A stretch of DNA of 62,445 nt, the filler included, from Bilabrum cf. latius (Eukaryota), in the NCBI GenBank assembly GCA_965178125.1. It is 4 parts of 4 records of this genome, joined end to end, with 100 filler letters (N's around TTAATTAATTAA, not from the genome) between each part and the next. Parts side by side here need not be neighbours in the genome. Positions count along the whole stretch, not along the records: positions 29,964 to 59,245 come from CBCXTV010000018.1; 3 more parts are not named here. One strand, 5' to 3'. Shown in pieces: positions 15,045-55,346 of the stretch. Positions within the stretch are counted from its first letter, which is position 1. Each line of letters begins with the position of its first letter. The position numbers and the translations under genes are program-made. A model generated the notes under the pieces. That model was given only the letters and a program-made list of their open reading frames with translations. It did not search any database and had not been told where the DNA came from.

Positions 15045-15046
15045 TA

Positions 15047-17619: not shown

Positions 17620-17744
17620 TAGGTCCGGCCGCCCAACTACCTGTGGAAGCGGGAGAAACTTGGCCAAACCCCGATTTGCGCCAGGGGGAGCCATGTTTTC
17701 GCCATCTTACGTTGGGGTGTGCAATCAAACTTCCGGCGCAATTC

Positions 17745-17820
17745 AACTTCCGGTGCAATTGAACTTCCCCGAGCCCGGGCCCGGGCCCGGGCCCGCGGAA
17801 GTTCAATTGCACCGAAAGTT
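17745..17820. repeat. 24-bp inverted repeat enclosing (CCCGGG)n
   Basis: AACTTCCGGTGCAATTGAACTTCC ... GGAAGTTCAATTGCACCGAAAGTT. Confidence 0.8.
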
Positions 17821-17944
17821 CACCAGATCCAGCGTTTGTTCGTGAAAGCACGGCCCGCATTCGGCCAAAGCAGCTCAACAACAGCGACTAAGATGGCTCA
17901 AACAGGTTCCCGGCCCAACTTGTGCACGAGCAGCGCAAAGCATC

Positions 17945-18300
17945 TCCCAACCCTCCCGGCAACCTTCCCGGCAACCATACCCCCCAACCCCCTCCCCTCG
18001 CTCTTGACAACCTTCCCAGCAACCCTCCCCAACTTTCTCCCAACCTCCCGGCCCGGGACTCCCGGCAACCCTCCCGGCAACCCTCCCGGCAAACCTCCCG
18101 GCAAACCTCCCCCAACCCTCTCCCAAACCCTCCGGCAACCCTCCCTGGCAACCCTCCCCCAACCCCCATCCAACCCTCTTGGCAACGCTGCCGGCAACCC
18201 TCCCCCAACCCTCTCCCAACCCTCCAGCAAACCTCCCCGCGGCCTCCGGCAGCCTCCCGGCAGCCCTCCCCGAACACTTTCCCAACCCCTCCTAGCAACC
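17945..18300. repeat. 12-bp CCCGGCAACCCT-like minisatellite (resumes ~18705-18775)
   Basis: Direct reading. Confidence 0.8.
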
Positions 18301-29863: not shown

Positions 29864-29963
29864 NNNNNNNNNNNNNNNNNNNNNNNNNNNNNNNNNNNNN
29901 NNNNNNNTTAATTAATTAANNNNNNNNNNNNNNNNNNNNNNNNNNNNNNNNNNNNNNNNNNNN
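29864..29963. other. Artificial contig spacer
   Basis: 100 bp of N-run + TTAATTAATTAA + N-run. Same spacer at 59246-59345 and 61346-61445. Confidence 0.98.
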
Positions 29964-30815
29964 GGGCGCCTGGATACAATCGAATGGACGTTTCGTCCAT
30001 GTTGATCCTGACGACGGCGGAGCCCGGCGGCCTCTGGGCGGACAGGAACGCGTCCCACTGGAAGCACGCCATGGCCTGTCCATAAACGGCCCCCGGGCCG
30101 CCGCCCGGCCGCAAAACGGGGGACCGGAAATGGCCGCCAAATCGGGCCCGCCCTATTAAAACCCATACTAGGCGGCCGCCAAATGGCGGCAACGGCCTTC
30201 TCCCGCAACACGGTGGCGCCCAGAGCAGGCCCGGGACGGGCTGCTGCCCAGCGAATGCCCCAGCGCCGACGCCAGCGCCGCACCCACTGCCGCGCCCCTC
30301 TCGGGACTGTCGTCGCCGGCGCGGCCAACGCGGCATCGCCCCTCCAGGCCCCTGGCTCTGGATGCTTCCAGCGAGCCCACACCTGGCTGTAGCTCGGCGT
30401 CAACCCCTGGGCCCGGTTGACGTCCGCGACCCATGCCGTCAGTTTCCGCTGCTTTTGCGGCTGCGGCGTTCGCCTCTGCGGCGGCCAGATCTGCCGGCGG
30501 CGGCTTGAGGCTCGGGGCGCCCCCTTCGCTGGATGATGCCGCCGCCGCGTCGGCGACGGAGCGACCCCCTGCGAGATAGGCCGCCGCAGCCTTCTCGCCA
30601 TCCGCGCCGCCGACGCGGCGAGCAACGCAACTCGCCACTTCAGCCCGGCGCGGCTGCCTTTTCCGCTTGCCGGCCCCTCGACGGGCCTCGTCCGCCAACC
30701 GGCGGAGTTCTGACCGCACCGCCGCTGCATCAGCGGCGGCTTTCCGGCGCTGCTCTCGCAAGTGCGTCAGGCCGCCCGGCTTTGCCGGGCCAAGACGTGC
30801 AAGGTGGTCGGCCAT
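29964..30815 (-). CDS. DDE transposase, N-terminal part (cut by contig start)
   Basis: Copy of 44879-45872 with two internal deletions. Confidence 0.75.
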
Positions 30816-31973
30816 ATCCGAAAACGGGGTTCGAGGCAAGACGCCGGCGACTCAGTGGATGCCCTCGCCCGACCAGGGCCTGTCGAATGTAGTAGCCGGG
30901 ATGCTTCCTGCGCCCAACCCCCTTTACCTGCCAGACACCCTTGTCATGGCTCCCGCACTGTCCACGGAAATGGGGAGGGGGCTTATGACTGTACCAGTGT
31001 CGAACCCCTGCGAACAGGGTTCCGCCTTTGACCCGTCATGGGGCTTGGGCCCGAAAGGGTCCCGGTCCCCGGCCCGCTGGCCCTGGGATACCTGGAGCCC
31101 CTGAGCTGCCTGTGCCGAGGCCCCTGGCTCTCGGGCGCCCCGCTCGTAAGAAAAGTGCTGGCCATGGCTTACCTGATCACATGATCACTTGGGCTCGCAC
31201 AAGCTCGGGGGCAGGGGGCGGGCGGGGGGGGGGCATGACGGAGGCCTCGCGGCGAGTTGGGGGTGGGTCGGAAGGAGTCCATGCCATTGCGCGGTCCGCT
31301 CTCAGGGCTTTTCGCCGCCCGGGCGTTCCACGCAGAAGCGCCCTTCGGCGCGCAGGCGGAGTCTGCGGGGCGGGGCGGCGGCGGCCCGCCGAGCGGCGGC
31401 GCCTCCGCAGGCGGAGCCGCCGGGGTCGGCGGGCAAGGGGGCGCTCGGAAGCGTCGAGCGCCCCAAAGTTGCAGGAGCTCGCGGGCAACCGCGATGCTCG
31501 GTGTTGCCATGACTACTGTACCTGAGATGCGAGTGCCTGCGTTCCTGGGCTGCACCCCGGTGAACAGACCAGGCCCCTGGCTCTGGCGACCCCACCCCCT
31601 CCAGCCCCAAAACTTCTCGGCCATGGACTGCCCTCGTGCCCATGACCCTGACGCCCGCCAGCCCGGCCGACCACCCGTCCCGCCGTCCAGCCGGCCACAC
31701 CGCCACACCGGCCCCTCTGCCTGCCCGCCCGCCCGCTCTCCTGCCCGGCCGCCCAGCCACCCTCTCGCGTCCGACTCCCCTTTACCAGGAAAAAACGTCC
31801 CCGGAGCACGCTTGAGGGGCGACCCGGTTCCAAGGCCCAATGCTGACAGACAGGGTGCTGCTGATGCCTCCCTCGTGTTGCTGCTGGCGCTGGCCCCTGG
31901 CTCAGCCGCTCGCGGCAGCCCTCACGGAAGCTGCTGGCGCTGGCCCCTGGCTTCCCCTGCCCCGCGCCGGCCC

Positions 31974-34088
31974 TCAGTCGTCGGCGCCGTCGGCGTCGTC
32001 CACCACGCAGTTGTCGTACCAGTCGTCGCCAAGGAAGTGCGACCAAACTTCGTAGTTGAACATCTGGCGCAGGGCCAACGTCATGGGGGGGAAACTCAGG
32101 GAGGCACTCTGCTCCACCTCCACTGGTTTGTACCACGCTGTGTCCCAGTCCTTGGAGCTGTCTCGGGTGTGCGGGGGGGGGGGGGGGGGGGGGGGGATGC
32201 CGAGGGGGGCGATCTGGCCGGAAAGATCAACCTGATGAGCCCCGGGGCCTCGGGCCTTTTCCGGGTCTTTCCCTCTTTTTTTCGCCGCCGGTCCTTGGCG
32301 CCGGGGTCTTGCGAGAACCGCCGACGGCAGTACATCCGCACTGCCTGCCGTCGCTTCCGACGGGCCCCATCTGTCGCCCACCTGTCGCCCTCGGGCACGT
32401 CCTCCCAGAGCGGCGTGGTCGCGAAGACTTCTGCGAGGCGCGTGATGGGACACGGCCTGCAACCTCTCTGGAGCCTGAAACCGTCGGGGTCGAACCTAAC
32501 CCCCGCTAGCCCCGCCGCCGGATCCTCGTCGACGTCCCCCCTGTTTTTCTTCTTCCGGGGCCTCTGGCTCCCGGATCTCGAGGAGGCCGCTGCCTCAGCC
32601 CGAGGGGCCTGCCGCCAGTACGCGGCCTCCTGCTGCTGAGTAAGCTTCGGGCCTACCCACTGGCCCCAGTAGTCCAGCCACCAGCGGTTCCACAACCGCT
32701 GCTGCCACACTGGGTCATGCCAGTGTGTGGGGGGGGCGATTCGGTGACCCAATGGAGATTCGGCGCGTTCAAGTCGAGCTTGCAAATCCATTCGGGACCC
32801 CCTGAGGACCGGGGGAGGCCCAAATATCGGGCCCCCCTTCTCGTCGTGAAAGCCATTTCCCACCCACGGTTGCCCGAACGTGCTGCAACGCACTCCGATG
32901 CCCTTCTCGCAGCCGGAGACATGGCTCTCGAATGAGCCCAGCGACGGGTACAAGAAGCAACTGCCGACACTTTCGTCGGGCGTTTTGGCAGCGTCCATCA
33001 GGAACCATTGCCTCAACAAGAGGTCACAATGCTCCGGCTTCTGCCGCTGGAGCCACGGCAAGTACTCGCGGGCGAATGCTGGCGTGAACAGGACCATCAT
33101 GGATCCATGTGACGGCTGCTGCCTTCGGCCCTTGCCTGTGCGACCGTCCCAAGAGGCCCAAATCATGTTACCGCGGGCATGTCTGTCGGCCTCCGTGGCC
33201 ATGTGCACAAGGTCAATGAGCTCTGGGCTGGGACGAGTCTCCGGGAAATCGGGCGACCAACCGAAGAAAGTTCTCCCCTTCCCGCGGGTCTCCGGCCCCT
33301 GGCTCGAAGCACCGGACGCGGCAGTCTCCGGGGGGGTGGGCTTCCGGGGCTCGACAGAGGAGGAGCCCCGGGCTTCAGAGGCCCCGGCGGGCGGGGGGGG
33401 AGGGGCCGTTCCGGCCGGCGTAGGCTGGTGGGCCAAGAGCTTCTGCATGAGAGTCTTGGGGGGTCTGGACCCCTCGTCTTCCGCGTCGGGAATGCTTTCG
33501 ACTTCGTCGCACCAATCAGGGGGAGTCACTTCCCCCGGTTTTTTCTCGGGCTCCTCTTGCGGTGGCTCCTGGCTCTCCGTCGCGCCGGCTGCGGAGGCCC
33601 CTGGCTCTCCGTCCGCCAGCCCGGCCTTCTCCGCGGCCTCGGCGCGGATGAGGTCGAGGAAGGACTCGTAGCCCGCCTCCTGCCAGTTCGCGCCCTGCTT
33701 CGCGAAGCAGTCCCTTTCGTAGATGCGCATGTCCGCCTCGCAGAAGATGAAGAGCGTGTCACTTGGGTATCGCGGGTCGAGGACATACGGCAACATGACG
33801 TCCTGTGATGTGGGCGGGCGGCCGGGTGTGAGCGGGCATGTGTGGCGTGGGGGGACAGGCGGGCTGGCGGCTGGGAGCGGGCAAGAGGGTGTGGGCGGGG
33901 CGGGCTACGTTTTCGTCAATGGTCCCTCCAGAAGTAGAAGCCGGCTTCTCGCGGCTGGCACTTCGGCTCCCTCTTCGCGCACCTCCCCAGCATCTCCAAC
34001 GCCACGCACGGACGCAGTCGGATGCTGTGGTAGGGCAGCTGCGCCTCGGCCTGCTCGTCCTCGTGGGTGAGGACGATGACCTGATCAT
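31974..34088 (-). CDS. Spliced hypothetical protein with GT25/GT-A glycosyltransferase-like motifs (copy 1)
   Basis: ORF 32096-33796 has LFIFCEAD, HGSMMVLFTPAFAREYL, HCDLLL and YPSLG. Predicted intron 33803-33924 joins GFYFWR to DVMLPY. Some indels. Confidence 0.5.
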
Positions 34089-34113
34089 GGCCGAAATGGG
34101 GGAGGGGGTTGAG

Positions 34114-34680
34114 CTACACTGTGGGCTTTGGAGTCGCTCCGTCGCGACGCTCTTCGCGGAGGCCCCTGGCTCTCCGGCTCACTAGCGCCGCAAAGGCCCG
34201 GCATCCCCCTCCCGCGCCCGCCCCCCGACCCCACCGTTTTCCCCCCGACCCGCCCTCCCCAAAGCGGAGGCCCCTGGCTCTCCGGCTCCAAGCCTGAACT
34301 GAGGAGACCCCCGCCAGTGTTTGACACGAGCCAACCTGTACGGGTCGGCCCTCGATCACTCTCAATCCCTTGGGGCCGTCAAAGCGGATGGGCTTCGCAC
34401 TGAGGATCTCCCGAGCGTATTCGACAGCGGCCCGCTGGAACTCCCGCGCCCGGAGATCCCGCTTGTACTCCCGCTCGCGGACCGTCGGGCCCAAGTCGTC
34501 CGCTGTCGTCGCGAGCTGGGACCGGGCATCCGCGTCGCGCTCCGCCGCTGCCGCCACCCACCTCCCGAAGCTGTCACCTGTGTTCCCCGCGCGTCTCTCC
34601 TGGTGGCGCTCGTAGACGCCGGCGACCCAGGAGTCGCTCCCCCCCTTCGGCCCCCCTTTGCCGCGGCCCTTTCGCCCCAT
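34114..34680 (-). CDS. Hypothetical protein with basic N-terminus (MGRKGRGKGG...)
   Basis: Helical, protein-like ORF on the element coding strand. Second copy ~49148-49719. Confidence 0.55.
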   Translation of the reverse strand: MGRKGRGKGGPKGGSDSWVAGVYERHQERRAGNTGDSFGRWVAAAAERDADARSQLATTADDLGPTVREREYKRDLRAREFQRAAVEYAREILSAKPIRFDGPKGLRVIEGRPVQVGSCQTLAGVSSVQAWSRRARGLRFGEGGSGGKRWGRGAGAGGGCRAFAALVSRRARGLREERRDGATPKPTV

Positions 34681-34852
34681 CACAGCGGGCACGAGCGCGC
34701 TTGCACGAGTTCGCTGGGGGAAAAGCCTCGCGCACGTTTGAGGCTGGAGGCTGAGGTACGGGCTGCACCGCGCCTGTTTGGCGGAGCTCCTGGCTCCCCG
34801 GCAGCCAGGGCCCCTGGCTCCTGGCATGCCGGATGCTAGCCCATGCCCATCC

Positions 34853-35264
34853 TCACGCTGTGCGCGCACTTCGAGACAATTCAAGGCCCGAGAAGGCCGT
34901 TGTGGCGATTCTGCGATCGAAGCGTGGGCCGTGACTCAAACCGCTTCCCAACCACCATGACCGCCGGCAAAACTCCTGGGAATGCAACAAGCCAAGGGGA
35001 ACATCGGACATGTGGCGTTTGTGGTCCAAGCCACCCCTCCCCAACAATAAAAACAACTGGGTCCCGCCACCGGTCTCGGCTTTCCTCGTCCACTCAAACT
35101 GCCCCGACCCTCCCCCCCCCCCCCCGAAGCTGCGAATGGCTAGTCGGATGGTCTTGGTCGATCGGCGGTCGTGCGGGGCACGAACTCTTCCAGCCATCAT
35201 TCCACTGAGGAAGCCCCGCCCTGCTCAGGCGGAGGCAATGCTCCAAAGCACCGTTGTCCGACAT
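34853..35264 (-). CDS. Small family-Y paralog 1 (frameshift near poly-G)
   Basis: MSDNGALEHCLRLSRAG...VPLGLLHSQEFCRRSWWLG aligns with 38798-39178. Confidence 0.45.
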
Positions 35265-35604
35265 GTCTGGGGGCGCGCTGCAACCAACAACACCGGCATG
35301 GAATGACTCTGGCGTGCTCGCATGTTGGCAGAACTGCGACTGTTGCTAGTGGTGTGTCGCTCGCGCAGGCCTCCCGGGCCCCTGGCTCCGGGAGTGCCAG
35401 CGCCTAAAGTTACATACCAAGGTTGCTGTCCTCTGCGGCCCCTGGCGGATTCCCCGGCTCCCGGCCCTCGCGGCCGCTGGCCCTGCGCTCCTGGCTGGCC
35501 CCCGGGCCCCGGTCACTTCACCGCCCCGGCCCCGCAGGGACCGCCCCCATGCACCAGGCCCGGGCCTGGCCGCGGACCTGTTTAACCGGCCCGACAGCGG
35601 CAGA

Positions 35605-35669
35605 CGAACCAGCGGGCCAAAAGATGAATCCCAATAAGTCAGGTAAAACCTTTTGGTCCGCCGGCTTCG
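35605..35669. other. Stem-loop 1 of the repeated intergenic module
   Basis: GAACCAGCGGGCCAAAAG...CTTTTGGTCCGCCGGCTTC. Confidence 0.7.
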
Positions 35670-36377
35670 CGACCCCCTTCCGGCAAATTGGGCCCGGAAA
35701 AGAAGGGCATGGACCGGCCCAGAGCCGGAATCCCTCCCTCCCCCCCCCTTTTCGCCTCGGCCTGGACCCCGATTCGGAAAGCTCAAGCACGGACGGCTGG
35801 AAGCAAGCTGACGGAGATTTGATGCCCGGAAAGAGCGACCCCGACGCCGGGCCCGGGGCCCCGACCCCGGGGCCGGGACCCCGGGCCCGCTCCGCGTCGC
35901 CAGACAAGGCGCAACAGTGCTGAAATCCCCTCGCCTTCCGAGCCGAGCCCGTCCCTGGGGCAGCCCTCGGGTGAATCCGTCCGCCCCCCCGCGGCATGGA
36001 TACCGCATCTGGCAGGGCCATACGCCCCCTCCCCCCGACCGCTTGGAGCACGCGCGCGATCGCGCGAGGTGGACGGCTTTCCCGGTCGATGCTCTCCCCA
36101 ACATGGAACTCCCACATGCTGCTAAAAAAGGAAGCGCCAGCAAAAGAAACGGCTGTACAAGAAGTGCGCGAACCCATGGAACTGTACGAGTCCGCAACGC
36201 GACCGAGGCCCAGGCTCTCAAAAGCGGGCCCGTCGGTGAGATGTGGGCAGCGAGGACCCTGTCTCTCGCATCCAAACGCCGCCCATGCCTACAACCAACG
36301 ACCCGGCATGCCGCTACAAATCCGGGCCCCTGGCTCCGGAGAAAAAGGAAAGCTGTGCGGCGGGAAGCAAGCGCGCC

Positions 36378-36611
36378 TTAGGGAAGCGGGGCAACTTCCC
36401 TGGGATCCAAATCGATCGGCTGGCCGACGCTGACCACGATCACCTCAAAAATCCTGTCTTCCTCCGGGGCCCAAACATCAGGCACAATCCTGAGCTGCAT
36501 CGTCCAATGCCCCTCCTCGTAGTTCACGCGGAGCACTGTGACCGAGGCACGCTGCATGAGCTGTTCAATCAGCATAATGTCAGCCCTGGAATGAGGAGGC
36601 GGCCACGGCAT
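36378..36611 (-). CDS. Small family-Z paralog 1
   Basis: PPP..ADI..IEQL.Q...EEGHWTM aligns with 36937-37170 and 38323-38570. Confidence 0.5.
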   Translation of the reverse strand: MPWPPPHSRADIMLIEQLMQRASVTVLRVNYEEGHWTMQLRIVPDVWAPEEDRIFEVIVVSVGQPIDLDPREVAPLP

Positions 36612-36936
36612 GCTTGCGAGCGATCCGACTGCAAACGGGCACGGCGGGCACGAGCGCGCTGGCACGAAGTCGCTGGGGGAGGGCTCGAGGACACTTGAGG
36701 TAGGAGGCTGAGGTACGGGACATATGCACCGCCCCTGCTGTGCGGATAGGCGCGGCGCGGCCGAGGCCACTGTCGCTCACCTGCGGGACCCTCGGCGAGC
36801 TGCGAGCAGCGCGGACCCTGTCTCACGCATCCGAACGCCGCCCGCGGGCCCAACCACCGACCCGCCATGCCGCGACAAATCCGGGCCCCTGGCCCCGGAG
36901 ACCTAGGAAACCTGTGCGTCGGGAAGCAAGAGCGCC

Positions 36937-37170
36937 TCAGGGACGGGGCGAGTCCTCCCAGTCCGGCCCGTCGCTGTCGCCCCTTTGGTAGAGGCCCAGG
37001 AGGACAACTCCTATGACCCTTGCATTTCCCGGCCATTCGCCCGGGAAGCGCATCAGCACCTCCATACGCCAGTGCGGCTCATCCCAGGACAAGCGAGGCA
37101 CCTGCAGCGGGCGACCCTGAAACAACGACTCAAGAGCCCAAACATCGGCCGGCCGGGTCGGATCCCGCAC
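36937..37170 (-). CDS. Small family-Z paralog 2
   Basis: RPADVWALESLFQG...WDEPHWRMEVLMRF. Confidence 0.5.
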   Translation of the reverse strand: MRDPTRPADVWALESLFQGRPLQVPRLSWDEPHWRMEVLMRFPGEWPGNARVIGVVLLGLYQRGDSDGPDWEDSPRP

Positions 37171-37180
37171 TGGCGGTTTA

Positions 37181-37438
37181 TCATGCGCTGTGTGCTCGCC
37201 GCCCGGCGCTTGCCGCCTCCCTCACTCGTTCAACCACTCGCCGGAGCTTCATATCATCCCCTGAGACCGCTAGTACTGGCACTGGGCGCCCGCTCGCCGG
37301 CACTGCGCGGCGGCCACAGACGAAGCCCACAGCAAGCCCGCATGAGCAGAAGCACCATGCGAAGCAACAACACAACATCGCCAGGGCTGCGAGGAGCAAC
37401 ATGTCGCCCGGGGAAGCTTGGTGTGCGAGCTCTCCCAT
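37181..37438 (-). CDS. Small Cys-rich hydrophobic (possible membrane) protein
   Basis: MLLLAALAMLCCCFAWCFCSCGLAVGFVCG followed by basic residues. Confidence 0.4.
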   Translation of the reverse strand: MGELAHQASPGDMLLLAALAMLCCCFAWCFCSCGLAVGFVCGRRAVPASGRPVPVLAVSGDDMKLRRVVERVREAASAGRRAHSA

Positions 37439-37535
37439 GCTGGCGCCTCAGACGGGACGGAAGACCAGAACCAAAAATGGCTGGGGAGGTCCGCCCTCTG
37501 GTCCCGGCCCCGGGCCTGGCCGCGGGCCAGTTTTC

Positions 37536-37637
37536 GCGGCCGGAATCTGGCCGCGAAACCGGCGGACCAAAAGGTGAGACCCAACAGTCGGGTATCACCT
37601 TTTGGTCCGCCGGTTTGGCGGCCGTTTTCCGGCCGCC
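37536..37637. other. Stem-loop 2 of the repeated intergenic module (perfect 22-bp stem)
   Basis: AAACCGGCGGACCAAAAGGTGA / TCACCTTTTGGTCCGCCGGTTT. Confidence 0.85.
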
Positions 37638-38322
37638 AAATTGGGCCCAGAAACGGAGCCCATGGACCGGCCCAGTTCGGGACTCTTTTCCGGCCCCCGT
37701 TCTGGCCTCGGCCGCAACCCCGATGCGGAAAGCCGGGGTCCGCGACCCCGACACCGGGCCCGGGGCCCCGCCGCCGGGGTCCGCGACCCCGACACCGGGC
37801 CCGGGGCCCCGCCGCCGGGCCCAGACCCCGGCCCGGTTCCGCGCCGCCCCAGAAGGTGAGCCTGTGATGCATTCCCGTGGCTCTCCGAGCCGAGCCGGCC
37901 CTGGGGCCCTCATGTAGCAAGATTATCGACCATGGGCCCTTTGCTAATCATATGGCATGGCCATCCGCCCCCTCGCCTCGCCGCCTGGAGCACGACGCGC
38001 GCGCGGCTCGCCACATGGCGGTTTTCCCGTCGATGCGCTCCCCCACATCCAATTCCACATGCGGCGACATGCATGACACACAAACAAGAGAAGCTGCTAT
38101 ACACCGAGTATGCGTGCCGATGCTCCTGTACAGAGGCGCGGCGCGGCCGAGGCCACTGTCGCTCACCTCCGGGCCCCTCGGCGAGCTGCGAGCAGCGCGG
38201 ACCCTGTCTCACGCATCCGAACGCCGCCCGCGGCTCGAACCACCGACCCGCCATGCCGCGACAAATCCGGGCCCCTGGCACCGGAGACCAAGGAACCCTG
38301 TGCGTCGGGAAGCAAGAGCGCC

Positions 38323-38570
38323 TCAGGGACGAGGCGATTCCTCCCAGTCCGGCCCGTCGCTGTCGCCCCTTTGGTAGATGCCCAGAAGGACAACTCCAAT
38401 GACCCCTGCATTTCCCCGCCATTCGCCCAGGAAGCGCATCAGCACCTCCATACGCCAGTGCGGCTCATCCCAGGACGAGCGAGGCACCTGCAGCGGGCCA
38501 CCCTGAAACAACGACTCAAGAGCCCAAACATCCGCCGGCCGGGTCGGAGGCGGGAACGGCTTGGCTACGA
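38323..38570 (-). CDS. Small family-Z paralog 3 (start uncertain)
   Basis: Near-identical to 36937-37170, with the stop in the same position. Confidence 0.5.
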
Positions 38571-38683
38571 GCGCCCCGAACGCAAGGGGCACACCGGGCA
38601 CGCACGCGTTCCCAGGAGCTCGCCGGCGAGCTGTCAAAAGCACACTTGGGGCCGAAGGCTGCCGTACGGGACGCTGGTACCGC

Positions 38684-38775
38684 GCGTCCAGGGCCCCTGG
38701 CTCCTGGCTGGCCGTGCGTCCAGGGGCCCCTGGCTCCTGGCTGGCCGTGCGTCCAGGGCCCCTGGCTCCTGGCTG
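38684..38775. repeat. ~32-bp tandem repeat x3 built on GGCCCCTGGCTC
   Basis: GCGTCCAGGGCCCCTGGCTCCTGGCTGGCCGT repeated. Confidence 0.85.
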
Positions 38776-38797
38776 ATGCGACCCGCGCCGGGCCACA

Positions 38798-39178
38798 TCA
38801 GGGCCACTGGAGGCCGCTGCGGAGATTGTGCTCTCGGAGAGTCGCACCCTGCGTCAACGAGCAACCCAACCACCAGCAGCGCTGGCAAAACTCCAGGGAC
38901 TCGAGGACGCCTATGGGCACCTTGGCATTCGGGAACTGTCGATCCAGCCACAAAAAAACTCGGGCCCGCTGACGATCTGCGCTTTCCTCGTTCACACGCA
39001 GCTGCCCCGACCCCGCAGTAGCAGCGAACGGCATGGTCAAGAGGTCCGTCTTGATCGTTCCCGGCGGGCGCTGGCGCTTCCATTGCTCATACAACTGTAG
39101 ACCCCCCGCCCCGCTCAGGCGGAGGAAATGCTCAGATGCCTGCTTGTCCGCCATGCTGGGGCCCGCGCTGCGGACCAT
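38798..39178 (-). CDS. Small family-Y paralog 2
   Basis: MADKQASEHFLRLSGAG...VPIGVLESLEFCQRCWWLG. Confidence 0.5.
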   Translation of the reverse strand: MVRSAGPSMADKQASEHFLRLSGAGGLQLYEQWKRQRPPGTIKTDLLTMPFAATAGSGQLRVNEESADRQRARVFLWLDRQFPNAKVPIGVLESLEFCQRCWWLGCSLTQGATLREHNLRSGLQWP

Positions 39179-39502
39179 ACAATTTGCGACGAGGACAAAG
39201 CATGGCGCGCGCGCACGGTCGCACGAGTGCGACGCCAGGCAAGATTCTGAGGCGCGCGAGGAACTCCCGGGCCCCTGGCTCCGGGAGGGCCTGCGCCAAC
39301 CCCCCCTTCACACTGACATACAAACGTTGCTCTCCCCTGTGACACCTGGCGGATTCCCTAGCTCCGGGCCCTGGCGCCCGGCGGCCTTGTGCCCCTTGCT
39401 GCCCCCCCCGGCCCCGTTCACTCCAGCGCCCCGGCCCCGCCCGGCCCGCCCCACGCTCCGGCCCCGGGCCTGGCCGCGGGCCCGTTTAGGCAGCCGGTAA
39501 AC

Positions 39503-39578
39503 GGCCGCGAAACGGCCGGGCCAAAAGGTGAAACCCAGGTAATCGGGTATCGCCTTTCGGCCCGCCGGTTTCGCGGCC
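39503..39578. other. Stem-loop 3 of the repeated intergenic module
   Basis: GGCCGCGAAACGGCCGGGCCAAAAGGTGAAACCC...GGGTATCGCCTTTCGGCCCGCCGGTTTCGCGGCC. Confidence 0.8.
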
Positions 39579-40268
39579 ATTTTCCGGCAATATGGTCCCA
39601 GGTACTATAGTCATGAACAGGCCCGCTTGCGGACTCTCCTCCGCCCACCCATTCTTCGCCACGGCCTCGACTCCGATGCGAAAAGCCAATGCCGGGCCGG
39701 CTGGAAGCACTCCGTCGGGAACTCGACGCCCGCGTCCCGGACCCCGACGCCGGGCCCGAGCCCCGGACCCCAGGGCCGCGACCCCGAGCCCGCTCCGGAG
39801 TGTGCCCAAAAGTGCACCTGTGAGGAATTCCCGTCGTCATCCGAGCCAATCCCATCCCTGGGACACTCATGGGGCAAGCCGCTCGAGCATTAGACGCTTG
39901 GAAACCCATCTCACCGGCCATCCGCCCCCCATCCCCGCCGTCGTCTGGAGCACAACTCGCGCGACGCGCACGACAGCGCGCGCTTTCCCCCGTCGATGGG
40001 CTCCCCTACATCGAACTCCCCACATGCCGCCTTCTGAATGCGGCACGAACAAGAGAAACAGCTATACAGGAAAAAAAAAAAAGGTTCCCATGCAACTGTA
40101 CAGACCGGCTGCGGTACCGAGGACCCCGTCTCTCGGATGCTCGCCCCTCGGAGAGCTGCGGACGGCGAAGACCCTGTCTCTCGCATGCGGAAATCCGGGC
40201 CCCTGGCTCCGGCAAATGCCCGACAAAGCCGGGCCCCTGGCTCCGGAAACATTCGGGCAATGTCTTCT

Positions 40269-42144
40269 TCACCCCGACTGCGTCGGGAGATAGTCGACCG
40301 AGGCGGCCGTCCACATCGGTTCCAGGACATGGATGTAGAAGCTGTTGTATATCAGCCATTTCGCGTCCTCCCAAGCCAACTGGCAGAGGCGGACCCGCCA
40401 CACATTCGAGCACACAACGAACTTCTTGCCCGCCACACAAACCGCATAGCTGTAGCAATTCGTCATGCTCGTTTGCATGGATACCATTCCGGGGCCCGCT
40501 TGAAACAGCTTCTTCGCATCGACGATCTGCTGCGGGTCCGCCTCGTCGAACAGGAGCACTTCGTGCACCGAGGGATCGTAGGCCTTCATGTCGATGGTCG
40601 CTCCTCCCGCCAGGGAAATCTCCAGAGTCCTCTCGTCGCCCGCCAGGGCACGGCAGAACGCCGTTTTGCCCATACGGGAGGGTCCATCGAGGACGAGGAA
40701 GCTGTACCGGTCAAGAACCTGGCTATACTGTGCCTCCCAGAGGGAGACCGCGGCGTACTTCCGCCAGGGTCGTTTCACCTCGTCGCTGTTCCTTCGTCGC
40801 CAATCCCTGTAGGCAGCGACGCTGCTCTCGAGCTGCGCAGTCCGCCAGCTTTCCAGATTCTGCAAGTTCCGCACAATCCCGTTCGGGATCTTGCAGATCT
40901 CCGCGCGCGCCACATCATAGAGCATCTTGGATGCCTCAAGGCTCGAAAATATCCATGTCGCTCCAACGGGGTAGCCCTCGTGCGGGGGCGTCGTCGTGTC
41001 ACTGTACAGGCACGAGGCTTTCGAGCTGTGCAGGTAGTACAACACAGACCCCTGGCTCTTGCCCCGTCCGCCCTGGTTGCTTCGCACATGAGCTTGGACG
41101 TCCCCCCATTTCCAAGCGTCCGCTTCCGGCATGTAAAACTTGCGGTTGTGGGCGAGAGCCAAGTGACAGTGCACCCGGATGGTGCCGTCTGCCAGCCAGG
41201 ACTTGGAGCAGACCTCCATACACCAGGCGGCCTTGCCCATCTCCCCCACAATGCCCCGGACGCTCGCCGTGAATTCCGCGAATTCCGCCCACCGCGCCTG
41301 TACAACCGGGTGCGCGCGAACGCACCCCGCGAGTTCCGCAATTAACCGCGTCTCTTTTTCCCAATGGAAGTCCGCCATGGACAGCACCCTCCGCGGCGAG
41401 CCTGCAGCACCCTCCCAGCAGGGAGGACGGGGATACCCAGCCGGGTAATCCTGGAAGAGAGGACCGGGAGGAGGCTCCGGCCCCTCCACTGGCGCCATCT
41501 CGGAGGCCACTGGCTCTCCGACCCCTGCAGGAGGCCCCTGGCTCTCCTCCGTTGGGCGAGTACAGAACGCCCCAAGCCGGTAGCCATGTGCACAGGACCG
41601 ACGTCGTGCGGACCTTGTTCGAAGCGTCCCGCTGGTTTTTGGCGAGGTACCACACCGCGATCTGGGAATCCTGCGGGCAGTCGTGCACAAAAGCTTTCAC
41701 TAGTTCCTCCCTTTCCTCGAAGGGCCTCGTCTTTCGCAAGCTGTACTGACGGTGGAGTCTAAACTGTTGGGCCCTGCACTTCGTAGCATACCCAGTTCGG
41801 TGTTTCCACCAATATCCGTATTTGTTCAAGAAACGCTTCCCTAGCGCCGCCGGGTCCTCGGCCATGCCCATCAACCACGCCTGTTCTTCTTCACCGACGC
41901 CTTCTGACGGCGCGGACGCCGAAGAGACTGCCGCCACGGCACCTGGGTCGGGCTGCTTCCATCTCATACGTCGCCGCGCGCGGGGCGGTTCCTCCCACAG
42001 GACCACCGCAGCGTCATGCTCCATGGGCTCGCTGTCAGCCTCCATGCGGTTCCCACCCCCCCGCAACTCTATGACCGAAGCGACAACAATGGTATATGCA
42101 AAAGACCCCGGACCAAAACGGCTGCGAAGACATAAAAAACGCAC
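40269..42144 (-). CDS. rep: HUH endonuclease-SF3 helicase Rep, copy 1 (5-nt deletion at ~41530 shifts the frame)
   Basis: Same protein as 55347-57227, split over two ORFs. Confidence 0.85.
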
Positions 42145-42458
42145 CTCACCGCTGCCCGGCTCAAGGGGACTGGGATCACTCCCGCGGGGACCTTCAATCT
42201 CGGGCCTTCCGAACGGAAACCCCTTTCAGACATGTTCGGAAAAGGGCACCCCTCAATGGGCTTCTGGGTCATCGAACGGCAAGTCCGACCCGGGCTCGGA
42301 GACATGTTCCATGACTACGGCTTTCCCATGCTCGGAGACCGCTGAGGGGAGACGGAGGGCGGGGTGGCTGGGTCCCCTCCGAGGCGAAAAAGGCCAAAAA
42401 AAAAGCAAAAAAGCCAATAAGGCAAAAAAAAACCCCCAAAAAATGGGGAAAACGTGAA

Positions 42459-42613
42459 ATTCAGACGAAACGCGTTTTTATGGACAATATTAAGCGCCAG
42501 AATGGACAGTTTCGTCTGAATCGACCCTTTTTGCCCTTCACAATATGGGGGAACGGATTCAGACGTGGAGTTCACGAATTTTTCCGAATCGCTTCACAAT
42601 ATGGGGGAACGGA
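42459..42613. promoter_or_regulatory. Candidate rolling-circle origin/iteron region upstream of rep (copy 2 at ~57539-57693)
   Basis: 13-bp inverted repeat around TAATATT (minus strand) and two 22-bp direct repeats CTTCACAATATGGGGGAACGGA. Confidence 0.45.
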
Positions 42614-42824
42614 AAATCGCAAAAAGTGAGCAGTCTCATTTACCACGTTGTCAGGCGCTTTTTGGCTTTTTTCCCCTGATCTCGCGGGAGGGGGCGGGGG
42701 GGGGGGGGTCTGGGAGGGCCCCCGGGCCCGATTTGGCCGGAAATTGGCCGATTTATATAGGGCGCCTTATTAGGACCGCTAGGGGGAATTCGGAGGGGCC
42801 CAGAAACCCCGATTTTTGGGGCTG

Positions 42825-43140
42825 GCCCGGGCCCCGCCCGGGCCGGGGCCGGGGCCGGGCCGGGGCGGGCCGGGGCCCGGGCCGGGGCAGGGGCCGGGGG
42901 CCGGGGCCGGGGCCGGGGCCGGGGCCGGGGCCGGGCCGGGGCGGGCCGGGGGCCGCCGGGGGCCGGGGCCGGGGTCGGGGCCGGGGCCGGGGCCGGGGCC
43001 GGGCCGGGGCCGGGCCGGGGCCGGGGCCGGGGTCGGGGGCGGGCCGGGGCCGGGGCCGGGGCCGGGGCCGGGGCCGGGCCGGGGGCCGCGGGGCCGGGCC
43101 GGGGGCCGGGGCCGGGGCCGGGGCACGGGCCCGGGCCGGG
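42825..43140 (+). repeat. (GGGGCC)n G-rich tract (copy 2 at ~57905-58220)
   Basis: Direct reading. Confidence 0.9.
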
Positions 43141-43359
43141 GCTGGCCCAACCCATTCCGTCGGGCTTCCCCACTCGACCATTCTTGTCCGGCGTCAACAT
43201 GGCAACTTGGCTAAGCCCGCACTGCCCCCCCACATGCCTGAACGGAGGCCGCTGCGTCCTTTTCAAAGGCGCGCGAACGGCACGCCAACTCAGCCTGCGC
43301 GAGGCTAAATGCGGAAATCCCCCCAAAAAGCGCGGAACCGGCCGTCCCCTTCCTGTCGC

Positions 43360-43887
43360 CTACTCTTCGCGACGCTCGTCCTCCTGCAGTCCCATATCCA
43401 CATCCGCATCCGCGCGGCGCGCTTCCGAGGCTTCCGGCTCTGGGCTGTTCTCGCGCCGTTCCCCGTCCTCGGGCAAGTCGGCACGCCCTTCCGCGGGACG
43501 TTCCCTTTCGCCGGACGCACCGTCTGGCGCGGCTTTGGTCGCGGGCTCGGGCGCGGCCCCTGAGCTCTGGGACACGCTGCCTGGGGCAGCGTCGTCGTCG
43601 CCGGGGCCCCTGGCTCCCGAGGCGCTGCGCGCCGCTGCGTCTTTGCGCATAAGGAGGACCGCCACGAGATCCTCGGAGCTCATCAAGCGGGTGCGACGCC
43701 GCAGTCGCTGCTGCTTTTTCGTCGCGTTCCGAACGGCCCTGGAAAGTTCTTTCTTCTCCTGCCGCACGCGCGCTTGTTGCGCCCGCAAAGCCTCGATTTG
43801 CTCTTTCAAGGGATCCGAGGGCAGATGCTCAAAGACCGACGCTTTTGCCTCTTTCAAGGAGGCCGCGGCGGCGGGCGAGGACGCCAT
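43360..43887 (-). CDS. Basic coiled-coil hypothetical protein (175 aa; copy 2 ends at 58439)
   Basis: LKEQIEALRAQQARVRQEKKELSRAVRNATKKQQRLRRRTRLMSSEDLVAVLLMRK heptad pattern. Confidence 0.7.
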   Translation of the reverse strand: MASSPAAAASLKEAKASVFEHLPSDPLKEQIEALRAQQARVRQEKKELSRAVRNATKKQQRLRRRTRLMSSEDLVAVLLMRKDAAARSASGARGPGDDDAAPGSVSQSSGAAPEPATKAAPDGASGERERPAEGRADLPEDGERRENSPEPEASEARRADADVDMGLQEDERREE

Positions 43888-45872
43888 GGCCACAAGCGCA
43901 CGCCCACGGGGAAGGCAGGATGCCCGCGCGCACTCGGGGCGGGTCGAGCGACCGGGCCGGGCTCGGGGTCTGGCACAGCTGCATGCGAGGTGCTCCGGGT
44001 GCGGCCTCGCCAAGGCGCCGCGGCGGCGCTCGGCGCGACATCGCCGGGGCCCCTGGCTCCCGGTCGTGGCACCCGGGGGTGGCCGCCGACTGGAACATGC
44101 ACCAGCAGGCTTCGAAACAAGAGTTCGATGGGGATGTCCCTGCGGGCTGGGAATATGGCTTGCAGCTGCGCCAAGCTGGGAAGGCTTGCTGGTGCGGGCG
44201 CGAGGGGCGGAGACCCCAGGGCCGCGAGAAAGCGCCGCGAGGTGGGGGGCCCGTCGTGCAAGCCGCAGAGAGCGAAGGCCCTGGCCCAGGACCGAGAGCT
44301 GAGGACCCCGTTGAGGCTCATTCCCAGCACACCCAAAACGTCTCGCACCCCCAGCTCCGCCCGCCCCCTGCGCAACTGCAGCTCCACATACCGACCCCGA
44401 ATGTGCTGTTTCAAGGCCGCAAATACTGCGACATCCAAAGGCTGTAGCCATCGGGTCGCGGATGCTGGTATCAAATGGTAGCGCAAGCCTGCTGCAGCAA
44501 CGGTCTTCATGACCGCCGGTGCCGAGTGGACGGGGCATGCGTCAAGGCTGAAGATGAAGACCCTCCCATGGGCGACGGGTTTCAAACAGGCGGCCAGGAG
44601 CCGCACGATGTCGCAGAGCACAGCGGCATTTAGCCACGCCGACTTCCGGCGAATGAGGAAGACCCTGTCTTTCCGGCCGCGCACGAAGTCAGCCGCCACA
44701 CCCTGAGGCACAAGGCGGTCGTTGGCCACCAGAATCTGGGGGAGAAGAGGCTGTATTTCTGGAGTGTCGGTGACAAATGCGCAGAGGGAGAGACACCCAC
44801 GCTGAGCATTCAGGCTCACTTTCTGCTCCAACGCCGTTCCCCGGCCGCCGGGGCCGGGGAGCGCCACTGCGCCGCGAGGGGCGCCTGGATACAATCGAAT
44901 GGACGTTTCGTCCATGTTGATCCTGACGACGGCGGAGCCCGGCGGCCTCTGGGCGGACAGGAACGCGTCCCACTGGAAGCACGCCATGGCCTGTCCATAA
45001 ACGGCCCCCGGGCCGCCGCCCGGCCGCAAAACGGGGGACCGGAAATGGCCGCCAAATCGGGCCCGCCCTATTAAAACCCATACTAGGCGGCCGCCAAATG
45101 GCGGCCAGAATCGGGCCCCAGTTTTTTCCCGGGTCGGCCCCGGGGCCCGTTTCCAGGGACGCCCCCCCCGGGCCCCACGGAGCCCCCCCCGGGCCCTTTT
45201 GCATGGGCCGAGCCCTGGTGACACCGCAACGGCCTTCTCCCGCAACACGGTGGCGCCCAGAGCAGGCCCGGGACGGGCTGCTGCCCAGCGAATGCCCCAG
45301 CGCCGACGCCAGCGCCGCACCCACTGCCGCGCCCCTCTCGGGACTGTCGTCGCCGGCGCGGCCAACGCGGCATCGCCCCTCCAGGCCCCTGGCTCTGGAT
45401 GCTTCCAGCGAGCCCACACCTGGCTGTAGCTCGGCGTCAACCCCTGGGCCCGGTTGACGTCCGCGACCCATGCCGTCAGAGCCCGCTCGCGGCAATACTT
45501 TTCCGCTGCTTTTGCGGCTGCGGCGTTCGCCTCTGCGGCGGCCAGATCTGCCGGCGGCGGCTTGAGGCTCGGGGCGCCCCCTTCGCTGGATGATGCCGCC
45601 GCCGCGTCGGCGACGGAGCGACCCCCTGCGAGATAGGCCGCCGCAGCCTTCTCGCCATCCGCGCCGCCGACGCGGCGAGCAACGCAACTCGCCACTTCAG
45701 CCCGGCGCGGCTGCCTTTTCCGCTTGCCGGCCCCTCGACGGGCCTCGTCCGCCAACCGGCGGAGTTCTGACCGCACCGCCGCTGCATCAGCGGCGGCTTT
45801 CCGGCGCTGCTCTCGCAAGTGCGTCAGGCCGCCCGGCTTTGCCGGGCCAAGACGTGCAAGGTGGTCGGCCAT
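43854..45872 (-). CDS. Pogo/Fot-like DD35D (DDE_1) transposase with predicted GC-AG intron 44991-45233
   Basis: INMDETS, FSLDACPVH and IPASATRWLQPLDVAVFAALK, with 35 residues between the 2nd and 3rd Asp. Confidence 0.85.
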   Translation of the reverse strand: MADHLARLGPAKPGGLTHLREQRRKAAADAAAVRSELRRLADEARRGAGKRKRQPRRAEVASCVARRVGGADGEKAAAAYLAGGRSVADAAAASSSEGGAPSLKPPPADLAAAEANAAAAKAAEKYCRERALTAWVADVNRAQGLTPSYSQVWARWKHPEPGAWRGDAALAAPATTVPRGARQWVRRWRRRWGIRWAAARPGPALGATVLREKAVAVSPGLGPCKRARGGLRGARGGRPWKRAPGPTREKTGARFWPPFGGRLVWVLIGRARFGGHFRSPVLRPGGGPGAVYGQAMACFQWDAFLSAQRPPGSAVVRINMDETSIRLYPGAPRGAVALPGPGGRGTALEQKVSLNAQRGCLSLCAFVTDTPEIQPLLPQILVANDRLVPQGVAADFVRGRKDRVFLIRRKSAWLNAAVLCDIVRLLAACLKPVAHGRVFIFSLDACPVHSAPAVMKTVAAAGLRYHLIPASATRWLQPLDVAVFAALKQHIRGRYVELQLRRGRAELGVRDVLGVLGMSLNGVLSSRSWARAFALCGLHDGPPTSRRFLAALGSPPLAPAPASLPSLAQLQAIFPARRDIPIELLFRSLLVHVPVGGHPRVPRPGARGPGDVAPSAAAAPWRGRTRSTSHAAVPDPEPGPVARPAPSARGHPAFPVGVRLWPWRPRPPPRPP

Positions 45873-47049
45873 ATCCGAAAACGGGGTTCGAGGCAAGACG
45901 CCGGCGACTCAGTGGATGCCCTCGCCCGACCAGGGCCTGTCGAATGTAGTAGCCGGGATGCTTCCTGCGCCCAACCCCCTTTACCTGCCAGACACCCTTG
46001 TCATGGCTCCCGCACTGTCCACGGAAATGGGGAGGGGGCTTATGACTGTACCAGTGTCGAACCCCTGCGAACAGGGTTCCGCCTTTGACCCGTCATGGGG
46101 CTTGGGCCCGAAAGGGTCCCGGTCCCCGGCCCGCTGGCCCTGGGATACCTGGAGCCCCTGAGCTGCCTGTGCCGAGGCCCCTGGCTCTCGGGCGCCCCGC
46201 TCGTAAGAAAAGTGCTGGCCATGGCTTACCTGATCACATGATCACTTGGGCTCGCACAAGCTCGGGGGCAGGGGGCGGGCGGGGGGGGGGGCATGACGGA
46301 GGCCTCGCGGCGAGTTGGGGGTGGGTCGGAAGGAGTCCATGCCATTGCGCGGTCCGCTCTCAGGGCTTTTCGCCGCCCGGGCGTTCCACGCAGAAGCGCC
46401 CTTCGGCGCGCAGGCGGAGTCTGCGGGGCGGGGCGGCGGCGGCCCGCCGAGCGGCGGCGCCTCCGCAGGCGGAGCCGCCGGGGTCGGCGGGCAAGGGGGC
46501 GCTCGGAAGCGTCGAGCGCCCCAAAGTTGCAGGAGCTCGCGGGCAACCGCGATGCTCGGTGTTGCCATGACTACTGTACCTGAGATGCGAGTGCCTGCGT
46601 TCCTGGGCTGCACCCCGGTGAACAGACCAGGCCCCTGGCTCTGGCGACCCCACCCCCTCCAGCCCCAAAACTTCTCGGCCATGGACTGCCCTCGTGCCCA
46701 TGACCCTGACGCCCGCCAGCCCGGCCGACCACCCGTCCCGCCGTCCAGCCGGCCACACCGCCACACCGGCCCCTCTGCCTGCCCGCCCGCCCGCTCTCCT
46801 GCCCGGCCGCCCAGCCACCCTCTCGCGTCCGACTCCCTTTACCAGGACAAAACGTCCCCGGAGCACGCTTGAGGGGCGACCCGGTTCCAAGGCCCAATCC
46901 CGGTTCCAAGGCCCAATGCTGACAGACAGGGTGCTGCTGATGCCTCCCTCGTGTTGCTGCTGGCGCTGGCCCCTGGCTCAGCCGCTCGCGGCAGCCCTCG
47001 CGGAAGCTGCTGGCGCTGGCCCCTGGCTTCCCCTGCCCCGCGCCGGCCC

Positions 47050-55100: not shown

Positions 55101-55346
55101 CATGCCGCCTTCTGAATGCGGCACGAACAAGAGAAACAGCTATACAGGAAAAAAAAAAAAGGTTCCCATGCAACTGTACAGACCGGCTGCGGTACCGAGG
55201 ACCCCGTCTCTCGGATGCTCGCCCCTCGGAGAGCTGCGGACGGCGAAGACCCTGTCTCTCGCATGCGGAAATCCGGGCCCCTGGCTCCGGCAAATGCCCG
55301 ACAAAGCCGGGCCCCTGGCTCCGGAAACATTCGGGCAATGTCTTCT

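Follow-up and report, generated by a model that had tools for sequence, protein, structure and literature searches.

Eukaryotic replicons that encode a Rep protein are regarded as tiny viruses or plasmids, 1–6 kb in size, with a single origin hairpin. Here we describe an element from a stretch of 62,445 nucleotides (nt) of Bilabrum cf. latius (GenBank assembly GCA_965178125.1; the whole stretch is called the window below), in which a 14,915-bp unit encodes a Rep protein and carries, immediately downstream of rep, an array of four homologous blocks that are probably copies of one non-coding control module. Like the CRESS-DNA viruses (for circular, Rep-encoding and single-stranded) and the pCRESS plasmids, this element combines a predicted Rep fold (with HUH and Walker A and B motifs and a putative catalytic-tyrosine motif) with a hairpin of conserved apex near rep, and its short hairpins resemble CRESS origins compared across different viruses, in that the loop is conserved and the stem is free to vary. 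Unlike the CRESS replicons, it has a unit of 14.9 kb, lacks a recognised capsid gene and any hit to a Pfam Rep family, and possesses a palindrome of 100–140 nt, a recurrent partner gene of the DDE_1 type and about 20 extra hairpins per genome, all on one strand.

In nanoviruses and bipartite begomoviruses, the common regions (CR-SL and CR-M) are non-coding blocks with an origin-like stem-loop that stand beside different coding segments, much as the blocks do here, and an earlier note on this DNA, made from the sequence alone, had drawn attention to their resemblance to the common regions of multipartite viruses. The likeness to an origin-hairpin common region is real, since the module is non-coding and conserved, adjoins a Rep gene and has a stem-loop that is kept in relatives. 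What finds no support is the multipartite arrangement: unlike CR-SL and CR-M, the blocks lie head to tail on one molecule, are about 70% alike, and adjoin open reading frames (ORFs) of which three of the four are paralogs, and no separate circles were seen in the contigs of four public sequencing runs.

Bacterial repetitive extragenic palindromic (REP) sequences and their REP-associated tyrosine transposases (RAYTs, HUH enzymes of the Y1 type) also bring together an HUH enzyme and many short dispersed hairpins with a common short motif. Unlike these, the hairpins here are confined to the element (there are none in the 29.9 kb of contig A, the other long contig of the window), lie on one strand only, and occur within coding sequence without insertions or deletions, having arisen in place rather than having been copied; moreover, Rep here has a predicted helicase, and its family is absent from the genomes of 185,579 prokaryote species (one genome each), in which the only match was a 27-residue P-loop. 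Among eukaryotes, Replitron transposases have a Y1 Rep without a helicase, and Helitrons a Y2 Rep fused to a Pif1-type helicase (PMC10288648). Both are, like the element here, eukaryote-associated mobile elements encoding a Rep-class HUH nuclease. Unlike either of them, as they appear in the available part of that paper (no helicase in Replitrons, a Pif1-like helicase of superfamily 1 in Helitrons), Rep here is predicted to have a helicase of superfamily 3 (SF3), and no Helitron family was found in the Pfam scan.

The repeat unit, its rep gene and the module array

How is the window put together? Blocks of N at 29864–29963, 59246–59345 and 61346–61445 each consist of 44 N, TTAATTAATTAA and 44 N, a linker with stops in all six frames, so the window is a concatenation of four contigs (1–29863, 29964–59245, 59346–61345 and 61446 to the end), whose adjacency says nothing about linkage and which need not come from one organism. 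The second contig, which bears the array, is 29,282 bp long and amounts to 1.96 tandem copies of the 14,915-bp unit: 29964–44166 matches 44879–59245 at 98–99% identity by self-megablast, and the blocks are thus present twice in the window. Copy 1 (29964–44878, minus strand) was delimited by self-megablast, copy-to-copy alignment, the flanking linkers and end-to-start joints, and copy 2 (44879–59245, minus strand) is cut by the contig end. Between the two copies there are 13 mismatches and 54 indels (38 of single bases), a pattern typical of noisy long-read assembly. With linkers on both sides, the second contig holds no host sequence flanking the unit.

Half or part of the element's words were found in 15 public runs from ten studies, which bear several organism labels and none of which is recorded as RNA (a few with a small share are sediment metagenomes), and four of the runs (X1, X2, X7 and X9) were compared with the unit, all as contigs and not as raw reads. 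An X7 contig of 442 nt joins the end of the unit to its start without a mismatch, covering 247 nt on one side and 195 nt on the other, and end-to-start joints, weaker than that in X7, occur also in X2 and X9 contigs. The element is therefore either circular or a head-to-tail array.

On the coding strand (the minus strand of the window), the order of the region is rep, M4, Z3, M3, Z2 fragment, partial M2, Z1, M1 and Z0, with a period of about 1,950 bp (a module and a small ORF) that starts at the rep stop. Module M4 (39345–40260) is directly 3' of the rep stop (at 40269), M3 (37505–38322) follows the Z3 stop (38323), the partial module M2 (36750–36936) the Z2 stop (36937) and M1 (35440–36377) the Z1 stop (36378), all on the minus strand. 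The claim of the earlier note that four homologous blocks each begin just beyond a minus-strand stop is borne out: M1–M4 align together as a single family, and blastn pairs 34681–36340 with 38590–40247 (68% identity, 1723 columns, E 4e-140), 35538–36384 with 37488–38329 (72% identity, 861 columns, E 7e-112), 37504–38288 with 39458–40250 (70% identity, E 5e-88) and 36198–36392 with 36756–36949 (82% identity, E 8e-48). That the stops are four is likewise correct, but not every one of them ends an independent gene: Z1, Z2 and Z3 are paralogs, and the module has only two independent stop contexts, rep and the Z family.

The Z ORFs are all on the minus strand. Z3 (38323–38847) is uncertain in its N-terminal frame, X7 and X9 being without one base at 38723; Z2 (36937–37170) is a copy of the C-terminal part of Z3; Z1 (36378–36770) is a paralog of Z3 (32% protein identity over 117 residues, E 1e-12); and Z0 (34117–34935) has a 5' region homologous to that of Z3, a different 3' part, and a weak match in the metagenomic relative L002 (see below). 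M2 falls within a recent duplicate of 415 bp, 36748–37162 being a 95% DNA copy of 38134–38548. In Z1, Z2 and Z3, homology does not end at the stop codon but extends into the end of the coding sequence. When the three units are aligned, the first c. 840 columns, corresponding to the module, are 65–85% identical across all of them; past this point, units a and c are still homologous and the middle of unit b has been replaced, and homology is regained for a short distance at the 5' end of the Z ORFs. The module is found behind several stops, then, because a unit consisting of module and Z ORF was duplicated in tandem after rep. Its DNA (65–85% identity) is better conserved than the adjoining Z ORFs (32% at the protein level), which argues for working cis elements within the module. 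A second paralogous pair of small ORFs is located upstream of Z3 and Z0 (38798–39178 and 34853–35200, both minus; ..VPIGVLESLEFCQRCWWLG.. vs ..VPLGLLHSQEFCRRSWWLG..), and the duplicated unit may hold two small genes.

The rep gene itself is in two frames in copy 1 of the unit (40269–42225, minus strand), where it has a 5-base gap near 41530 relative to copy 2; the latter (55350–57308, minus strand, located by tblastn of homologs) is uninterrupted, with 653 codons from stop to stop. Insertion of a hairpin was considered as the cause of the break in copy 1 and was rejected in view of that gap and of the X1, X7 and X9 contigs, all of which have the form found in copy 2. A word-indexed search gave 24 homologs of Rep, none with a Pfam family, and the only name attached to seven relatives in a cluster look-up was 'hypothetical protein'. 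In a full scan, clusters at 50% identity that matched Rep numbered 1,137 at E <= 1e-3, 685 at E <= 1e-10 and 213 at E <= 1e-30. Across 21 of 21 aligned sequences, the histidines of the HUH motif (H174 and H176) are invariant; so, in the alignment, are Y219 and K224, which are spaced as Y-x4-K (YYLxxPK) and not as YxxK, and the residues of Walker A (G336-x4-G341-K342-T343) and Walker B (D382-E383). Any choice of the catalytic tyrosine from these sequences is a putative one. The AlphaFold model of Rep (predicted local distance difference test, pLDDT, 78) finds as its best full-length match among solved structures the Rep68 protein of the parvovirus adeno-associated virus 2 (AAV2; Foldseek, E 5e-6), with further matches to Vientovirus Rep and papillomavirus E1; its helicase half matches the SF3/AAA+ structures of papillomavirus E1, AAV Rep40/68 and Vientovirus Rep. 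Among predicted viral structures, a Genomoviridae Rep (E 3.6e-12), Reps of CRESS viruses and parvovirus NS1 were matched, with at least 500 matches in BFVD at E <= 1e-3. The TM-scores of these matches are low (0.24–0.34), as is expected because the two domains are mobile. By its motifs and predicted fold, Rep is a member of the class that joins an HUH nuclease to an SF3 helicase.

By sequence, Rep gave only a chance hit against the PDB (E 0.41), no match by tblastn in the PLSDB plasmids and, in a pattern scan of IMG/VR, 71 pattern matches with no relatives among them. The family occurs in marine and freshwater metagenomes, and for the comparisons below we used 74 metagenome contigs encoding Rep relatives (loci with L numbers; 272,632 nt in total, GC 47–71%), none of which proved circular by terminal overlap. 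Searches of the literature (supplements apart) yielded no description of the element family or of its loop motifs, hits to the 10-mers being primers and chance matches.

The stem-loop that the earlier note placed in the three long blocks corresponds to a long palindrome, present in M4 and M3 and decayed in M1. That of M3 (37524–37648), with 62-nt arms and the apex ..GGTGATACCC GACTGTT GGGT.., has the most stable fold (−66.5 kcal/mol and z −12.3 for 37515–37660); that of M4 (39493–39588) gives −45.7 kcal/mol and z −7.2 (39480–39600), and that of M1 (35587–35684) only z −1.2 (35575–35700). The sequence of the palindrome is conserved between the window and L005, and an apex that reads ..AAAGTGAAG(G)CC(C) GAC(T/A)GT.. 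recurs in L003/4/6, L005, L027/L060, L045, L056, L058 and L067, being kept in at least eight lineages, with arms of up to 69 nt. In relatives the palindrome is usually found once per contig, 0.6–2.8 kb downstream of rep; triplication of the module accounts for the three in the window. In L006, and in a second copy in L045, homology ends exactly at the apex. Since homology in rolling-circle replicons breaks at the nick site, the palindrome, and that of M3 in particular, is the best candidate for an origin, which would be Rep-dependent. Rfam returned for it only sub-threshold matches to miRNA precursors (53.6 bits, against a gathering score of 100). This long perfect palindrome is comparable in size to the telomeres or dimer junctions of parvoviruses; unlike a parvovirus, the element has an apparently circular or tandem 15-kb unit and a single kind of palindrome, and its Rep shows only about 11% sequence identity.

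Short hairpins on the gene-sense strand

The two motifs that the earlier note had found to be shared by the blocks turn out to be the loops of short hairpins. One of them, GGGCCCCTGGC, occurs 26 times in the window, always on the plus strand, against an expectation of 0.31; it is the loop of hairpins (GCCCCTGGCT on the plus strand, AGCCAGGGGC on the gene-sense strand) whose stems vary from copy to copy. The other, ACCCTGTCTC(A/T)CGCAT, belongs to a variant with the structure gcgag AGACAGGGTC ctcgc. Each module starts with a cluster of three such hairpins, the first being 22 nt past the rep stop and 37 nt past each Z stop. After rep there are two canonical hairpins (40229–40246 and 40195–40212, sense loop AGCCAGGGGC) and a variant (40117–40136, loop AGACGGGGTC); the hairpins at 37 nt from the Z3, Z2 and Z1 stops are at 38266–38285, 36880–36899 and 36321–36340 (the last being canonical), and the gcgag variant is at 36250–36269, all on the minus strand. 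When defined by the loop AGYCNNNNRC (10 nt) together with a perfect stem of four or more pairs, short hairpins number 20 on the sense strand of the 14,915-bp unit and none on the antisense strand; a first-order Markov simulation expects 0.13. A scan for bacterial promoters and terminators showed no enrichment (four terminator-like sites, compared with 7.4 in shuffled sequence).

This strand bias extends through the family. At least one sense-strand hairpin is carried by 35 of the 74 loci, which together contain 137 sense and eight antisense hairpins. There are 19 copies of AGCCAGGCGC in L002 (18 having stems of four or more), 24 of AG(C/T)CTGTCGC in L012 and 16 of its own motif in L018, in each case with none on the other strand. 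The four central letters of the loop track the clades of Rep as seen in a quick tree: AGGG in the window, AGGC in L001/2, TGTC in L012–14, TCTC in L021/22/32 and CACC in L045–L067. The occurrence of GCCCCTGGC in L001–L006 was at one stage taken for the window loop in reverse orientation, and this was rejected: L003/L004/L006 have it as their lineage's own sense-strand loop, AGCCCCTGGC, and in L001/L002 it belongs to a lone hairpin of another kind (ttgccg TGCCCCTGG cggcaa), outside the pattern AGYCNNNNRC, the family hairpins of these two contigs having AGCCAGGCGC on the sense strand.

Are the stems maintained as such? A set selected purely on the sequence of the loop comprised 92 occurrences, of which 86 are distinct; among these 86, the closing pair is G–C in 84 and the next three pairs are Watson–Crick in 78–82, with all four pair types represented. 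The covariation score of the stems is 0.757, compared with 0.188 for shuffles, none of 500 of which reached it. G.T occupies just 6 of 344 inner stem cells, making the stems nearly pure Watson–Crick; among mismatches in the inner five pairs, G.T outnumbers A.C by 14 to 5, a weak hint that it is the sense strand that folds.

Many of the hairpins are inside genes. Those within rep occupy gap-free conserved columns and use all three frames, from which it follows that point mutation, and not insertion, produced them in place; the idea that they are 15-nt in-frame insertions was rejected on the same columns. In L002, L009, L032 and L056, representing distant Rep lineages, a hairpin is present at one shared spot right after the Walker A codons (..GKT..AR | SLSP/SQAP..), where the loop dictates the peptide S-L/Q-S/A-P, and there are also hairpins within the DDE_1 domain of L012 and within the Rep helicase core. 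In nine lineages the first hairpin begins between −27 and +82 nt from the rep stop, and in the CACC clade its distance from that stop is +286/+287 (L045, L049 and L067) or +383 (L056). Elsewhere it is far from the rep stop or absent. In relatives with repeated intergenic sequences (L012 at 2376–2490, 5799–5880 and 7370–7483; L067 and L045), two classes of hairpin could be distinguished, AGCC-type loops having free stems and lying mostly within ORFs, and AGTC-type loops having fixed stems and lying in repeated intergenic modules at the starts or ends of genes, which suggests that loop variants divide labour.

Dispersed packaging stem-loops have been described in single-stranded RNA viruses (MS2, satellite tobacco necrosis virus, hepatitis B virus pregenomic RNA and picornaviruses: PMC6281560, PMC4751978, PMC7612645). 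As far as the available parts of these papers go, they are the nearest functional analogy to the short hairpins, in that many stem-loops with one loop motif and differing stems are spread through the coding sequence of the packaged strand. Unlike those signals, which belong to RNA genomes with known coat proteins and have degenerate 4-nt motifs, the hairpins here have an exact 10-mer loop, occur about once per 500–700 nt and have no known coat protein to go with them, and they may fold in DNA or in RNA.

Explanations for the modules and hairpins

The explanation that we consider the most probable is that the four blocks are copies of a single control module of a Rep-encoding element. A c. 1.95-kb unit of module and Z-family ORF was duplicated in tandem directly downstream of rep, and a recent, secondary duplication of 415 bp produced Z2 and M2. 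The module carries two cis elements that characterise the family as a whole, the cluster of three hairpins at its start and the palindrome of 100–125 nt with its conserved apex. The palindrome would be extruded as a hairpin and act as a Rep-dependent origin, the nick probably being at or near the apex GAC(T/A)GT, and replication would proceed by a rolling circle or a rolling hairpin. The short hairpins may act when the gene-sense strand is single-stranded, offering a protein of the element a series of sites to recognise, with one of them regularly marking the end of rep; reading by an element-encoded protein is proposed because the loop core co-varies with the lineage of the element. For the dispersed hairpins, we put the chances of action at the DNA level (in complementary-strand priming, in packaging or in the loading of Rep) at about even; action at the RNA level is rather less probable, and some other role is unlikely.

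Several observations weigh against this explanation. The CRESS nonanucleotide NANTATTAC is absent from the element, its sole match in the window being at 26072 on another contig. By the criteria used, neither internal repeats nor a long palindrome are present in the closest long relative, the 11.7-kb L002. With three origin-like palindromes in direct order on one replicon, interference with rolling-circle replication of unit length is to be expected; taken with the decay of the M1 copy, this means that the extra modules may be decaying duplicates and not working parts. The small ORFs are uncertain because the unit copies differ by many one-base indels, and comparison of Z2 with Z3 (four synonymous and seven non-synonymous codon differences) gives no sign of purifying selection. 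At the level of the family, 39 of the 74 loci are without an AGYCNNNNRC hairpin (a large share of them short contigs, and in some clades another loop may be in use); hairpins within conserved coding sequence speak against a simple role as terminators; and no capsid or other virion gene was recognised in the Pfam and PHROG scans, which a divergent capsid could have escaped.

Could more than one of the palindromes be an origin? If those of M3 and M4 (and formerly that of M1) were all active, Rep might start at one and end at the next, which we think unlikely; it is equally improbable, on the same scheme, that circles of c. 1.95 kb (one module and one Z ORF) exist beside a remainder of c. 13 kb, the array being a master copy of satellite-like minicircles. 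The apices are spaced at 1,954 nt (37586 to 39540) and about 1,950 nt (the third apex being near 35636), two of the palindromes (M3 and M4) are well kept, and there is an established precedent in the tandem constructs of geminiviruses and nanoviruses with two origins, which release unit circles. Repeated intergenic modules with hairpins are also present in L045 (2166–2649 resembling 4905–5391), L067 (several) and L012, and the breaks of homology at the apex in L006 and L045 fit the same idea. The sub-unit circles or recombinants between modules that the earlier note had suggested looking for did not, however, materialise: there is no well-supported joint between palindromes, or between modules, in the contigs of X1, X2, X7 and X9 (rare circles could escape contigs), and the inter-module joints in X2, the only run to have any, are shallow (depth 6–74, against sums of 35,000–280,000), have sides of less than 30 nt and are at non-homologous positions. 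The decay of the M1 palindrome and the want of any sign of selection in the Z ORFs also count against it.

Another possibility, raised in outline by the earlier note as a reusable terminator or promoter unit, is a unit that acts at gene ends and gene starts at the level of RNA. Transcription would then run in one direction, with the module as a reusable cassette of 3' end and promoter, and the hairpins would work in transcripts; we regard this as doubtful, and no less so the particular roles that might be envisaged for hairpins in that setting (3'-end formation, stability, export, binding of an element protein and possibly packaging). It would accord with the location of all the recognised genes and all the unit's hairpins on one strand, with the position of a hairpin close to the rep stop in nine lineages and its fixed position in the CACC clade, with the repeat of c. 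115 nt in L012, which has an AGTC-type hairpin and precedes three ORFs, with the slight excess of G.T over A.C mismatches, and with a known precedent, the transcripts of giant viruses, which end at hairpins. However, a terminator in any of the many hairpins that are inside long conserved ORFs, in three frames, would truncate messages, and the almost pure Watson–Crick pairing of the stems also counts against this scheme. Finally, the modules might be functionless, the outcome of plain decaying duplication, or the repeats might come from noisy long-read assembly. The mainly one-base indels between the two 15-kb copies, typical of read errors, the length of the contig at about twice the unit (a common assembler outcome for circles) and the decay of the M1 palindrome and Z2 could all be so explained; but the three modules are some 30% apart, far beyond read error, contigs derived from short reads in other runs cover the modules at 99% or more, and the elements of the module are conserved in distant relatives from other samples. 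This last idea is very improbable and already largely refuted.

Partner genes and the place of the element among Rep replicons

Two further genes of the unit are recognisable and, with rep, share a common strand. A gene at 43857–45908 (minus strand, spanning the boundary between copies 1 and 2) encodes an endonuclease of the DDE_1 (pogo) type (PF03184, E 3.6e-5; 23.8 bits, where the curated cut-off is 22), its catalytic domain being that of pogo and Tigger-type transposons. The domain is found also in L012 (E 1.1e-10) and L018 (E 1.2e-7), and beside rep in L002; element ends are not visible because the unit closes on itself. A conserved gene for a protein of about 600 amino acids ('P600') is at 32099–34113 (minus strand, from tblastn matches; 33919–34113 is probably its N-terminal part, in another frame) and has tblastn matches in seven of the 74 loci. 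It has no Pfam or PHROG family, its structure prediction reached a pLDDT of only 38, and an Atlas search gave leads at chance level (0.83–0.86), one of them a cluster with Glyco_transf_25 on 15% of its members. The recurring order is rep, the c. 600-amino-acid protein, DDE_1 and then rep again. PHROGs gave nothing for 11 proteins. Unlike integron cassette arrays, in which IntI is accompanied by an attC site behind each cassette, the element has hairpins within its genes as well, and none of the ORFs scanned gave a match to an integrase family. Rep-like nickases are reported from one virophage family in a preprint on small eukaryotic DNA viruses (10.64898/2026.10.13.758929), in the available part of which nothing resembles the gene set here.

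We also draw attention to some other features of the runs and of the window. X2, a single run of 2.9 Gb, has 15,635 contigs on 29964–44878, with summed depths of 35,000–280,000; 7,225 are at 99% identity or more, 4,105 at 95–99% and 4,305 at 90–95%, so that the element must be either extremely numerous in the sample or present there as a varied population. Contigs of X1, X7 and X9 leave the element at, for example, 30273, 30332, 31214, 35109, 35836, 38003, 38782 and 44021, beyond which there are at least 250 nt of unrelated sequence; junctions of integration, copies that have been rearranged and relatives that have diverged are all conceivable sources. A G+C-rich simple repeat resembling (GGGGCC)n, at 42565–43308 (and 57640–58390) between the DDE_1 gene and rep, reads as Gly-Pro or Arg-Gly runs in several frames, and similar repeats are present at 19.5–20.4 kb on contig A. 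The latter contig begins with a zf-CCCH ORF (1–1032) and has an unbroken ORF of 3,627 codons (1312–12192, plus strand; no Pfam family) flanked by near-identical 690-bp repeats (886–1570 and 12801–13490, 98%), as well as a low-GC island at 15001–18000 (41–50%), with an AT skew of 0.61 at 17–18 kb and tandem repeats at 17123–17538.

What might all this mean for the biology of these elements? As the probable control region of a Rep replicon, the module falls into a known class, and it is the hairpin code running through the family that may be new in kind. The pairing of Rep with a DDE endonuclease suggests a life between an episome and an integrated copy, and selection of a strength that can place 18–24 constrained bases in coding sequence every c. 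500–700 nt points to a step of the life cycle in which a single strand is read many times; we know of no such signal in DNA elements. Tentatively, and conceding that the balance is somewhat against so broad a claim, we suggest that the element of the window belongs to a large unnamed lineage (the 1,137 protein clusters at 50% identity) of eukaryote-associated replicons of about 15 kb, which combine Rep (HUH and SF3) with a pogo-type DDE protein and a protein of 400–600 amino acids, and which have a strand-specific hairpin code of about 20 copies per genome, with an exact AGYC-N4-RC loop whose core co-evolves with the Rep clade, written by point mutation into conserved coding sequence as well. 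If this is so, the code would be a new genome-wide cis signal for a DNA element, serving in priming, packaging or the loading of Rep onto single strands, and arrays with several origins, such as that in the window, could shed minicircles. The element is two to ten times larger than the usual Rep replicons of eukaryotes, and it represents a Rep family that is abundant in aquatic metagenomes and has neither a Pfam model nor a name, the host, particle (if any) and ecology of which become testable from the sequences listed here.

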